This document shows positions 1 to 2,845 of a DNA stretch of 28,484 bases, in pieces. Under the pieces are notes generated by a model, which ran no database searches, had not been told where the DNA came from, and worked only from the letters and a program-made list of their open reading frames with translations. The DNA comes from an uncultured Bacilli bacterium (lineage in GTDB: Bacteria; Bacillota_I; Bacilli_A; RF39; UBA660). The stretch covers positions 1 through 28,484 of the forward strand of contig CANQQV010000017.1 of the NCBI GenBank assembly GCA_947626095.1, written 5' to 3'. How positions within the stretch are numbered: the stretch's first letter is position 1; the number at the start of each line of letters is the position of its first letter. Both the position numbers and the translations under genes were made by a program.

Positions 1-18
1 AAATTAAGAAATAACTAA
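1..18 (+). CDS. 3' end (KLRNN*) of an upstream gene, probably a paralogue of the 31-1314 surface protein; partial at window edge
   Basis: Frame 1 reads AAA TTA AGA AAT AAC TAA, identical to the last codons of the 31-1314 ORF (1297-1314). Confidence 0.7.
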   Translation, partial: KLRNN

Positions 19-19
19 T
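1..19 (+). repeat. 19-bp exact direct repeat AAATTAAGAAATAACTAAT, copy 1 (copy 2 at 1297-1315); may extend left of the window
   Basis: Direct comparison of 1-19 with 1297-1315. Confidence 0.9.
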
Positions 20-30
20 TATTGATTTAA

Positions 31-1314
31 GAAAACGAAGTATGTGCAATATTACTATCAGTAGTTACTGTTAGTGCTGAAAGTACTGTAGACAGCCCTA
101 GTAGATGTTCTAATAATTCTTTATATATAGATCATGGCAATGGAACATACACTTGTGGTAATAATGTCACTAACGCATTAAAATCATTAGAAGAAAATGA
201 AACTGGTGAATTAGTTCTTTTAAAAGATATGGTTTTAGGTGGACCTGTAACTATTACTAAGGATATTACTATTAATTTAAATAGTCATAAACTTACACCA
301 ACTACATGGAATAATGGTGCTGGTAATGTTACAGTTAAAGGTGCTAATGTAACAATCAAAAATGGTACTATTGATTTAACATCAGGTGTTGGTCAATTAG
401 CAGTAGATTCAAGCGAAAAAGCTTCTACTTTAACAATTGCTAATGATGTTAAGGTTAATGCTACATTTAGTAGTGTTCCTGCTATTATAGTTAACGATGC
501 AACAAATACAACTGTTGTTAATGTTAATGGAACATGGACTGTTCAAAATGAAATTGTTAGTTGTCCTAATGGCAAAGACGAAAACCTAACAGTTAACTTA
601 AACGCTAATGTTAAAGCTACTAATTTACAAAATACTAGTTATTTAGTAGCAGTAGATGCTGGTGCTTCAACTGTTAATGTTTTAGGTGGAACTTATGAAT
701 CTAATAAATCAGTATTCGAAGTTAAAAATGGAACATTAAATGTTAAAGGTGGTAACTTAATAGCTAATGGTGGACATGCTATTGTTGTAACAAAACCAGA
801 TGCAGAACATACTACAACATTAAATATCTCAAGTGGTACTATTACTGCAAAAGCAACAGAAAGTTACAGCGTATACTTTGGTAGTGGAACAGGTGAAGAA
901 ACTGGTACTTATAGTATTACTGGCGGAACATTCACTTCTGGAAAAGACAAAGACCAAAAACAATTACCAGCAATTAAAATTGCATCACAAACATTCTTAG
1001 CAAACCATGCTAAAATGATAAGTGGTGGATCATTTACTGGTTCAATTGTTGGAGATGTTCAAACTAATGCTAAAACAGATACTTGGACAAGAGCTGCCGC
1101 TGCAACAGCAATTTTAGTTGGAAATGCAACAACTACAACTGAAAATGGTATAGTAACAGTAAATCCATCAAAAGCAGAAGATAATAAGAAACCAGCTGCT
1201 AAGCCAGAAGAACAAGCTCCAAACACATATGATGCAGGTCTTGTATATATGGGATTAGCATTAAGTGCAATCGGTGCAAGTGTTGTTTCTGTTAGAAAAT
1301 TAAGAAATAACTAA
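31..1314 (+). pseudogene. 5'-truncated (start-less) cell-surface protein cassette: signal-peptide remnant, Gly/Thr/Asn-rich beta-solenoid-like repeats, sortase-like C-terminal anchor
   Basis: Frame is open from 31 (after TAA 28-30), but the first ATG is at 229 with no RBS. 43-78 encode CAILLSVVTVSA (h/c region, VSA|E cleavage site). Repeats VNVLGGTY/LNVKGGNL/LNISSGTI/YSITGGTF/MISGGSF. C-terminus is APNTYD + hydrophobic helix + RKLR. Confidence 0.75.
54..75. other. Imperfect inverted repeat ACTA-T-CAGTA-GT-TACTG-T-TAGT, candidate recombination crossover site
   Basis: 9 of 10 arm positions pair around a central GT; function is inferred. Confidence 0.4.
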
Positions 1315-1315
1315 T
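1297..1315 (+). repeat. 19-bp direct repeat, copy 2
   Basis: Identical to 1-19. Confidence 0.9.
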
Positions 1316-1331
1316 ATAATATTTCTTTTTT
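1302..1331 (+). terminator. Weak intrinsic terminator after the surface-protein cassette
   Basis: AAGAAATA / TATTTCTT stem with a 10-nt loop and T tail. Confidence 0.4.
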
Positions 1332-1405
1332 ATCTCTCTAAAGTCCCATTTTTATGCTTATATATATTGTTTTATGATATAATTTTTATATGGGAGGTTA
1401 TAAAA

Positions 1406-2845
1406 ATGAAGAAGAAAAGTGACAAGATAATAATCATTAGCATAGCAATTTTGTTTATGGTTGTTTTATCTTGGTTTATTTCTTGTGGATACTATAAAGG
1501 AGGAGTCTTTTCTGACGAGGGTATCATAAGATTAGGAATATATGATATTTTATATAATATTTATGTTACATTTACTAATCAAGCTGTTATGATGAGTGTA
1601 GCTTATATATTAACTATTGGTGGTTGTTATGGTGTTTTAAGTAAAACAAAAGCATATCGTAAATTAGTAGATAAAACAGCTGCTCTAATTAAAGGTAAAG
1701 AAGCTATAGCTATGTTAGTAATAACTTTACTAATGGGTATATATACTTCAATATCTAGTCAAATATTAGCATTATTCTGTGTCATTCCATTTATTGTTTC
1801 TGTATTCTTGAGAAATGGATGCAAAAAACTAACAGCTATTAGTGCAGCCTTTGGTGGTATATTTATTGGTACGATAGGTCTTACTGTTGGTACCTATGGT
1901 ATGGAAAGTATTAATAGTCTTCTAGATACATTACCATCAAAAGTTTCTATGTTATTACCATTAAGAATAGGTATTTTTGCTGCTGCATATATCTTATTTA
2001 ACTTATTTGCTATTATATATATGAATAAGTATAAAAGATCAGCTAATGGTGGGAAATATGATATCTTTTGTCCAGAAGAATTAGATGAAAGTAAATTAAC
2101 TAAAAGGAAAAAAATTAAATTATGGCCATATATAGTACTATCTATAATTGCCATTATAATAACTATGTTGGCTTATATAGATTGGAAAACAAGTTTTAAT
2201 ATTACATTCTTTACTGAATTACATAATAAATTTATAACATTCGCTACAGTTGATAATATTCCAATCTTATCTTCTTTATTAGGTCAATCTATTGATGGTT
2301 TTGGTGAACAAGCAGAATTAATATTCGCTATTTTCGTTTTCGTGATATTAACGATTATCTTTGCTATAACTAGTAAGATGTCCATAGACGAATTTATTAA
2401 AAATTTTGGTTCAGGTTTAAAAAATATTGGTAAGGTCGCCTTTATTTATGGTTTATGCTATGTCCTAGTTATCCTATTAGGTACATGTCCATGGCCAATT
2501 ACTTTTATTAATGCCTTATTTGGTAAAGGAACATTTAATATTTTCGCTTTAACCTTTATTGCAATGATAGCGTATGTCTTCTGTATTGATTTTCCAACCT
2601 TTGGTAATGCTTTCAGCCAATACTTAATTGTAACTTATATGGATGATTTAGCTTCAGCTACCCTTATTTGGCATTTAGGAGCTGCTATAGCTGCTGTCTT
2701 TGTTCCTACAAGTTTCATATTATTAATGGCTTTAACTTATGCAGACATACCATATGTTAAATGGCTACAATATATTTGGAAATTCGTTTTATCATTAATT
2801 ATTGTAGTATTCATTATACTTGCTTTAGCAATATTAGTTAAATAA
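1406..2845 (+). CDS. YfcC/DcuC-like multi-pass membrane transporter (C4-dicarboxylate / arginine-ornithine antiporter superfamily)
   Basis: About 12 hydrophobic segments; ILTIGGCYGVLSKT and C-terminal PTSFILLMALTYADIPYVKWLQYIWK resemble YfcC; GGAGG RBS supports ATG 1406; TGATATAAT extended -10 at 1375-1383. Confidence 0.7.
   Translation: MKKKSDKIIIISIAILFMVVLSWFISCGYYKGGVFSDEGIIRLGIYDILYNIYVTFTNQAVMMSVAYILTIGGCYGVLSKTKAYRKLVDKTAALIKGKEAIAMLVITLLMGIYTSISSQILALFCVIPFIVSVFLRNGCKKLTAISAAFGGIFIGTIGLTVGTYGMESINSLLDTLPSKVSMLLPLRIGIFAAAYILFNLFAIIYMNKYKRSANGGKYDIFCPEELDESKLTKRKKIKLWPYIVLSIIAIIITMLAYIDWKTSFNITFFTELHNKFITFATVDNIPILSSLLGQSIDGFGEQAELIFAIFVFVILTIIFAITSKMSIDEFIKNFGSGLKNIGKVAFIYGLCYVLVILLGTCPWPITFINALFGKGTFNIFALTFIAMIAYVFCIDFPTFGNAFSQYLIVTYMDDLASATLIWHLGAAIAAVFVPTSFILLMALTYADIPYVKWLQYIWKFVLSLIIVVFIILALAILVK

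Follow-up and report, generated by a model that had tools for sequence, protein, structure and literature searches.

How does a bacterium come to hold a long, intact reading frame which begins in the middle of a signal peptide and has no start codon there? The question is raised by positions 31–1314 of the stretch of DNA analysed here (the window, 28,484 nucleotides), which is contig C17:1–28484 of a draft genome of an uncultured Bacilli bacterium (G000), window position 1 being the contig end. This genome was metagenome-assembled and consists of 34 contigs totalling 1.62 Mb with a G + C content of ~28%, 91% completeness and 7.9% contamination. We found that the frame is very probably a silent donor cassette, one of 15 silent copies in the genome, and that a single further copy carries the signals needed for expression. 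The best explanation, which we consider probable, is an expression-site and archive system in which cassettes are exchanged by gene conversion through a short 5′ homology box and a longer 3′ homology block. The variable protein is beta-rich and probably a sortase-anchored surface protein.

A reading frame without a start

The frame is open from position 31, directly after an in-frame TAA at 28–30, and runs through 427 uninterrupted codons to a stop at 1312–1314. Stop codons are estimated to make up ~8% of codons at this base composition, so that a frame of this length is far beyond chance. From position 31 it reads ENEVCAILLSVVTVSA/ESTVDS and thus begins midway through a signal peptide. The first in-frame ATG, GTG or TTG is the ATG at 229–231, which is where the automatic gene call starts (database protein P0018, 361 amino acids). 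Homology to paralogues extends upstream of this codon and runs across it (codon 67), with 82% identity to C19:5722–6987 across residues 4–427, and ATG 229 is therefore internal. By direct reading, GGAGG-like sequence is absent before 31 and before 229, and a promoter scan of window positions 1–1500 returned 6 promoter-like sites compared to 7.4 expected from shuffles, none of which lay upstream of 31. The initial annotation had described the frame in these terms, and its description of the start-less cassette was borne out throughout.

The cassette might instead be expressed in place, with translation beginning at ATG 229 or at a non-canonical start, or running through from the upstream cassette. 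The automatic call at 229 would agree with this, as would the shared frame of the upstream cassette and this one, with two TAA codons in between. However, translation from 229 would yield a protein that has a wall-sorting tail and no signal peptide, the two stop codons separate the frames, and neither a ribosome-binding site before 31 or 229 nor a promoter-like site upstream of 31 was seen. We regard expression in place as very unlikely.

All features of the cassette lie on the plus strand. Its variable body (78–1157) is predicted by an AlphaFold model to be a mostly-beta, probably beta-helix, ectodomain: the model (predicted local distance difference test score 82.1) is almost all beta, and the top Foldseek rows were parallel beta-helix proteins (P22 tailspike, PL6 lyases and PfbA), although these matches were weak (expectation value E ≥ 0.07). 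No family and no sorting-domain hit was found for the cassette protein in a Pfam and NCBIfam search. The C-terminus (1216–1311) resembles a sorting signal of the three-part type, with the motif APNTYDAG (1216–1239) rather than LPXTG, a hydrophobic stretch (1240–1293) and a basic tail, RKLRNN (1294–1311). In the genome, 21 open reading frames have a C-terminus of similar build (xPxT..., then hydrophobic, then basic). The walled, sortase-bearing setting that had been proposed for this protein is supported by five sortase hits and by a PBP1A-type transglycosylase/transpeptidase on C24. It should also be noted that many predicted surface proteins of G000 end in NPET[STL]D, NPxTG or GPNTG followed by a hydrophobic stretch and a basic tail, and that canonical LPXTG is seldom seen, a pattern suggesting that the sortases of the lineage have unusual specificities.

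Judged by similarity of CysS, the nearest named records were an ‘uncultured Tenericutes’ metagenome-assembled genome (81%) and similar Bacilli metagenome-assembled genomes; similarity was 71% to Mycoplasma sp. CAG:956 and 61% to a Ca. Coprovivens genome. Ca. Coprovivens is placed in the GTDB order RF39 according to an excerpt of PMC8035907.

Fifteen silent copies and one expression site

The segment at window positions 41–77 (CAILLSVVTVSA) lies within the signal-peptide coding region and is the 5′ homology box of the cassette, with all 37 nucleotides identical to the expression site. This segment was found in 16 genomic copies (two on C2, two on C6, one on C8, one on C10, one on C17, five on C19, four on C21 and one on C24), and its 32-nucleotide core (46–77) is identical in all 16. 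A promoter, a ribosome-binding site and an n-region are absent from 15 of these copies; the remaining copy is on C21. Several start-less paralogues sharing the signal-peptide segment, and one copy with a promoter, ribosome-binding site and n-region, had been predicted from the window, and this is the arrangement which we observed: 15 silent copies in G000 and 8 in a congener (G005), with one complete 5′ end in each genome, in G000 solely that on C21 (MKN n-region).

The 5′ box measures 32–47 nucleotides in each cassette, and homology to the expression site extends to the left of the core segment by 13, 5, 4, 3 or 0 nucleotides in 8, 3, 2, 1 and 2 copies, respectively. Most cassettes also share a 3′ block of ~160–200 nucleotides. 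In the window this common block occupies 1158–1314; positions 1158–1315 matched at least 8 places elsewhere in the genome at 93–97% identity, plus shorter ones, and a search with window 1201–1250 gave 14 hits. The sequence directly 5′ of the silent copies varies: 8 of the 15 have TAA immediately before FALCAILL..., 3 (including the window copy) are preceded by the KLRNN-TAA end of another cassette plus 22 nucleotides, 2 adjoin the stop codon of an upstream gene and 2 are fused to truncated tails.

On C21 (positions 74–43, minus strand) lies the only box copy preceded by ATG AAA AAT..., so that the product reads MKNLKLFVFAL and then continues into the box. A ribosome-binding site (GGGAGAGG) is present, and the best promoter match of the region, TTGACA-17-TATACT (11/12), is found at C21:204–176. 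Between promoter and start is a 48-nucleotide leader which is single-copy in G000. Contig C21 terminates 40 nucleotides past the box of the expression site, and the final stretch, C21:1–77 (the box and 40 nucleotides of body), is the same as C21:3029–3105, the start of a silent cassette (cassette B) 3 kb upstream; the 55-mer is found nowhere else. In this assembly, the expressed gene therefore begins with a copy of a cassette which is also kept silent. A B-type body at the expression site together with a retained silent B is the signature that duplicative transfer would be expected to leave. The contig stops short of the 3′ end of the expression-site gene; the candidate for it is C12:1–77, which holds a tail and terminator beside hisS and which, judged by synteny, is likely to be this end.

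The leader (C21:115–162, minus) is the same as G005:C9:115–162 (minus) and includes, just ahead of the main ribosome-binding site, a mini-ORF of 7 codons (TTG...TAA) that has a GGAG of its own; it may be a regulatory leader. An Rfam scan of it returned no credible family, and it had 0 matches in the Joint Genome Institute (JGI) metagenomes. Inverted repeats upstream of the expression site, with 29-nucleotide arms that are 86% complementary, were considered and set aside, as they may be due to chance in AT-rich DNA.

The locus was found in five public sequencing runs, all animal gut metagenomes, from two studies and labelled as rabbit gut or gut metagenomes. These were used as assembled Logan contigs (k = 31), and none of the listed runs was of an RNA type. 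When contigs from four runs were placed on C21:1–9000 they formed fragments of at most 931 nucleotides which broke at the box, and none of the joints at the box was informative. Several joints with 21-nucleotide sides were seen in this region, and these resemble repeats or other organisms. One loose contig end at place 96 was rejected, as it led into an unrelated gene with merely the first 15 nucleotides in common. The spacer between ribosome-binding site and ATG (C21:112–117) varied by 1 nucleotide between run contigs, with a deletion at 112 in run X5, a deletion at 113 in runs X1 and X3, and an extra A behind 117 in run X2. The G005 leader is likewise 1 nucleotide shorter in this spacer, and the variant contigs may therefore stem from a co-resident sister species rather than from phase variation.

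How far can the assembly be trusted at such repeats? Positions 1–77 of C17 match C6:37775–37851 exactly, and nearly all contig ends carry an exact 77-mer found at another place, which is the look of a k = 77 assembly graph cut at repeats. The assembly therefore breaks inside a repeat at the left edge of the window. An artefact, in which strain variants of one gene were misjoined to unrelated flanks, might be suspected in a metagenome assembly of this completeness and contamination with many contig ends in repeats. However, the 77-mer overlaps exceed the 47-nucleotide box, so that each silent junction is backed by k-mers running from unique flank through the box into the body. The silent cassettes occupy at least 8 loci with eight different flanks, on contigs of up to 161 kb, and the same design occurs in the independent genome G005. 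We judge an artefact to be exceedingly improbable. Two other contig ends, C8:75829–75905 and C14:1–86, consist of a tandem repeat with a 9-nucleotide period, the terminal 55-mer recurring at 9-nucleotide offsets.

Immediately to the left of the box in the window are the remains of the preceding cassette. Positions 1–18 are its 3′ end, cut by the contig end, and encode KLRNN with a TAA stop at 16–18, the same as the frame's own end at 1297–1314. At C12:1–100, the same tail and the same bases as window 19–40 extend into a complete hairpin and then a T run, upstream of hisS; window 19–40, which includes the in-frame TAA, is therefore the first arm of the family terminator hairpin fused to the box. 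This junction, which looks like a recombination scar, occurs three times in three arrays (C17, from C6:37775, and C19:5736–5660) and is identical apart from 1 mismatch in the last.

Other copies show further irregular forms. Cassettes B and C (C21:634–3114, minus) are fused in frame into a single frame of 827 codons, the tail of B running only as far as ...GLALS, where the next box follows; the same type of tail-to-box fusion is seen in database protein P0042 from another assembly. Upstream of the silent cassette at C6:36482, the region C6:36430–36490 contains ATG and then AAAAAA, giving MKKLFKIF... in a frame shifted by +1 from that of the box, with TTGACA nearby, and looks like the decayed start of a once-complete gene. 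At C2:1349–2893 (minus), two silent cassettes flank a complete paralogue which has a start of its own (MKKIKLFVFTICAILISVIGVNA) and a tail with TPNTYDAG; the signal peptide of this paralogue is related to, but distinct from, the box.

Selection on the silent copies and conservation between species

The 15 silent cassettes are covered by 14 stop-to-stop frames, and none of the 14 contains an internal stop. In the variable part, the ratio of non-synonymous to synonymous substitution rates (dN/dS) was 0.27–0.63 at dS 0.5–0.8 for 5 closer pairs chosen from the 91 among the 14 frames, the window cassette and its closest paralogue giving 0.27. The silent frames are intact and under selection. Their bodies are highly divergent: the window body shares 24–40% protein identity with 10 of 11 aligned family members and 82% with one, and across 105 pairs of bodies the longest exact match had a median length of 14 nucleotides and never exceeded 53. 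In 5 pairs, the proportion of synonymous differences (pS) was 0–0.12 in the last 62 codons vs 0.37–0.49 in the body, which points to ends that are homogenised or constrained and to bodies that are old. The combination of homogenised ends with no recent segmental exchange fits replacement of whole bodies rather than the formation of mosaics.

These data bear on another account, in which there is no programmed switching and the copies are 5′-truncated duplicates spread by illegitimate recombination, perhaps promoted by Rpn proteins, which would serve at most as raw material for rare exchange. Scar-like junctions are what this would produce, including the half terminator at the box, the cut tails and the in-frame 827-codon fusion of B and C, and both the silent bodies without recent exchange and the fact that switching has not been observed agree with it. 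It does not sit well with silent frames that lack internal stops despite 28% GC and have dN/dS < 1 at dS 0.5–0.8, with a box identical in 16 of 16 copies, or with a layout of one site plus archive in a second species with a different, internally homogenised box. We consider it quite improbable.

The cassette protein family is present in 3 of the 27 species genomes of the genus: G000, G005 and G010. G005 contains 9 copies of a different box, one with a promoter, ribosome-binding site and ATG (MKNLKLFVFALCLLTMSLVTVFA) and eight without, of which one has decayed. G000 and G005 each have one copy of the 48-nucleotide leader, the same in both, and it was found in 0 of the 25 other genomes of the genus, while the promoter region upstream of it has diverged between the two. 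A second copy of the expression-site body was not found in G005. The two expression sites occupy the same slot, downstream of relA, dtd, x and a gene starting MYQEP. In G000 this slot holds an Rpn-like gene, three silent cassettes and the expression site on C21, with the tail, terminator, hisS and aspS on C12. In G010, the same relA, dtd, x and ‘MYQEP’ genes are followed by four complete paralogues with their own starts and then by hisS and aspS. A likely history is that a tandem family of ordinary genes was converted to one expressed gene plus an archive. G010 with its complete tandem paralogues, G005 with one site and silent copies, and G000 with its larger archive thus provide a series in which the origin of the system can be studied.

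Database proteins P0020, P0021 and P0054 differ in their bodies and share an identical 23-residue N-terminus and a common tail, and a query with residues 1–40 of P0020 found this N-terminus in those three proteins only. These proteins may represent alleles of the expression site in a third species, or else complete paralogues. No relatives of P0020 were found in the JGI metagenomes, and a genome-contig scan with the cassette protein found no relative.

Proposed exchange between archive and expression site

The explanation by gene conversion can be set out as follows. The single locus on C21 would be transcribed and translated, having a promoter, conserved leader, ribosome-binding site, ATG and the n-region MKNLKLFVFAL, and the cassettes, at least 15, which start only in the hydrophobic half of the signal peptide would form the archive. 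Homologous, non-reciprocal recombination, crossing over within the 5′ box and within the 3′ block, would put the body of a cassette in place of the one at the expression site, and the silent donor would be retained. The exposed domain would thereby change while the signal peptide and wall anchor stayed constant. RecA, which is encoded in the genome, may drive the exchange, and the benefit may be escape from host immunoglobulin A (IgA) or from phages. The variable left edge of the 5′ homology is what such homology-driven exchange would be expected to show, and a recombinase site would not need it.

Several observations weigh against this explanation. No switching event, junction heterogeneity or transcript was observed, the k = 31 run contigs breaking at the box, and no recent mosaicism between silent bodies was found over the 105 pairs, so that there is no footprint of recent exchange. 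The duplication of cassette B is read from the metagenome assembly graph, in which a mixed population or an excised B-C-promoter circle would produce an identical cycle of 77-mers. Two codons 5′ of its box, cassette B (C21:3114) has an in-frame ATG, with AGAGG 11 nucleotides upstream. Complete paralogues with their own ribosome-binding site and ATG and with a common N-terminus and tail are present in G010 and in two genomes of other genera, G423 and G194, which are among the 5 of 401 family genomes matching at E ≤ 1e−20. Conserved ends are therefore a family trait and do not in themselves prove a cassette system; the start-less state is the special feature of the cassettes here. Finally, the 32-nucleotide core is perfectly identical while the 3′ block is 93–97% identical, which is more typical of a site recognised by a protein.

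This last difference keeps alive a second mechanism, site-specific recombination at the 32-nucleotide core by an unlinked Xer-type recombinase or by the neighbouring Rpn-like protein, with inversion or an integron-like excision and re-integration behind the single promoter. The core also lies within the 5′ coding region, as does vrs of Mycoplasma pulmonis, a cycle of 77-mers running B-C-promoter-box-B would likewise be expected from an excised circle, and Rpn-like genes adjoin five cassettes. However, the serine or tyrosine recombinase which had been anticipated close by was not found near any array, either in searches with PF00589 and PF00239 or in the open reading frame maps of the arrays. 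The four tyrosine recombinases of the genome are at C12:16.7 kb, C4:129 kb, C2:159 kb and C1:160 kb, and the three serine recombinases are on C1 and C28, all away from the arrays. All 13 copies on the four multi-copy contigs (C19 with 5, C21 with 4, C6 with 2 and C2 with 2) are direct repeats, and the expression site and its three neighbours are no exception; inversion is thereby excluded there, and simple recombination would delete DNA. This comparison of strands holds within contigs. Such a system would also have no need of the conserved 3′ block, and the core has no clear dyad symmetry by eye. Site-specific recombination therefore seems unlikely to us.

G000 contains seven Rpn-family (TIGR01784-like) open reading frames of 283–305 amino acids, at C21:4400–5266, C8:36648–37493, C24:278–1108, C19:3471–4286, C19:1233–2111, C15:24069–24911 and C28:14683–15405. 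Five of them end directly 5′ of the box of a silent cassette on the same strand, and the copies on C15 and C28 have no adjoining cassette. TIGR01784 was matched by 14 of 17 aligned family members (best E-value 1.4e−16), with the copies in G000 below the curated cut-off of 52.1 bits: that on C19 reached 26.6 bits, and for that on C21 there was no hit. A Pfam search of the Rpn-like proteins gave no hit to PF04754. Rpn/YhgA-like proteins are PD-(D/E)XK nucleases with acidic catalytic residues, and residues D66 and E81 are invariant in the 17 sequences here. The structural model was weak (pLDDT 63.6), and Foldseek returned nothing at E ≤ 0.001, its weak rows including the nucleases McrC, Kpn2I and EndoMS. 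In a PDB profile search, the C-terminus had a marginal match (E 0.027) to the arm and helix-turn-helix region of a resolvase. The C-terminal ~20 codons of these genes (...SGMTKEELSKRLSMPIL) are conserved even between copies which are 47% identical overall.

In G005, Rpn-like genes also lie beside cassettes but are divergently oriented, and none adjoins the expression site. The idea that these genes are confined to cassettes was rejected, as they occur in 12 of the 27 genomes of the genus vs 3 of 27 for the cassette family, and six other genomes of the genus have lone homologues among housekeeping genes. According to excerpts of the respective reports, RpnA of Escherichia coli stimulates recombination that does not depend on RecA, and its cleavage of DNA shows little sequence specificity (PMC5350276), and Rpn proteins have also been described as toxin-antitoxin phage defence (10.1101/2023.05.02.539157). 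A literature search, with most subscription journals outside its coverage, found no report linking Rpn to cassette systems. It is conceivable, though doubtful, that the Rpn nucleases are the switching engine, in which case a programmed break or nick at or near the 32-nucleotide box would start template-switch or gene-conversion copying into the expression site. The plain alternative is that Rpn-like genes and cassettes are co-located in recombination-prone islands.

Variation by means of an archive and an expression site is a textbook strategy of pathogens, including Borrelia, Neisseria, Mycoplasma, Anaplasma and trypanosomes. Mycoplasma synoviae, which belongs to the Bacilli in the GTDB sense, has one expressed vlhA gene and a pool of pseudogenes which are used by gene conversion. 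As in vlhA, there is here a single expressed 5′ end and there are many copies lacking a 5′ end. The vlhA pseudogenes, however, are clustered partial fragments that give rise to mosaics of a lipoprotein in a wall-less cell, whereas the cassettes in G000 are complete bodies at 8 or more loci with no long tracts in common. In M. pulmonis, switching of vsa occurs by site-specific inversion through HvsR, with the vrs core in the 5′ coding region. Like vsa/HvsR, vpma/Xer1 and the vsp genes of M. bovis, the G000 cassettes are silent genes without promoter and 5′ end which carry a short conserved site in the 5′ coding region. Neither the dedicated recombinase next to the genes nor the inverted sites within one compact locus, both of which those systems possess, was found here. 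Of the mycoplasma systems with which the initial annotation had compared the cassette, gene conversion of the vlhA type (or that of Borrelia hermsii vmp) fits, and inversion of the vsa or vpma type does not, given the direct repeats and the lack of an adjacent recombinase. Switching of vpma in M. agalactiae is Xer1-mediated according to passages in PMC5634654 and PMC2268961.

The vmp system (vlp/vsp) of B. hermsii is similar in having one promoter-bearing site and many silent full-length bodies, with non-reciprocal transfer into the one expression site, as far as excerpts of two reports describe it (PMC3974855; PMC6011951). Its upstream homology of ~60 nucleotides includes part of the signal-peptide coding sequence and its downstream homology is 214 bp (excerpt of PMC3974855), so that in both systems the upstream homology overlaps the signal-peptide coding region and the downstream block is longer. 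In vmp whole cassettes are replaced by duplication, and the 77-mer of the G000 expression site equals that of a silent copy. B. hermsii is a spirochaete pathogen in which lipoproteins are encoded on linear plasmids near a telomere; the candidate G000 system, in contrast, is chromosomal, among housekeeping genes of a walled Bacilli bacterium, and concerns a sortase-type protein with a 5′ homology that contains no start codon. The three silent cassettes directly upstream of the expression site on C21 recall vlsE of B. burgdorferi and pilE/pilS of N. gonorrhoeae, which exchange by gene conversion (excerpts of PMC3974855 and PMC3547852). In vlsE and pilE/pilS, however, short segments are exchanged to form mosaics and there are no complete silent frames, whereas the bodies here are complete.

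A literature search, again with most subscription journals outside coverage, found no archive-plus-expression-site system described for a wall-anchored protein of a walled Gram-positive bacterium, nor for a gut commensal. What we describe is probably a known kind of switching system, here in an unexpected host and cell-envelope setting. One practical consequence concerns annotation, as cassettes of this type are called from internal ATGs, as happened at 229, and such calls should be treated with caution. The finding also raises a testable role for Rpn nucleases: if they do drive switching, a walled gut commensal would possess a bacterial counterpart of HO/MAT switching, and Rpn proteins would for the first time have a physiological role in programmed surface variation. 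If the explanation by gene conversion is true, uncultured gut Bacilli with small genomes spend ~1% of a 1.6 Mb genome on varying one surface protein, which would indicate strong recurrent selection from host IgA or from phages.

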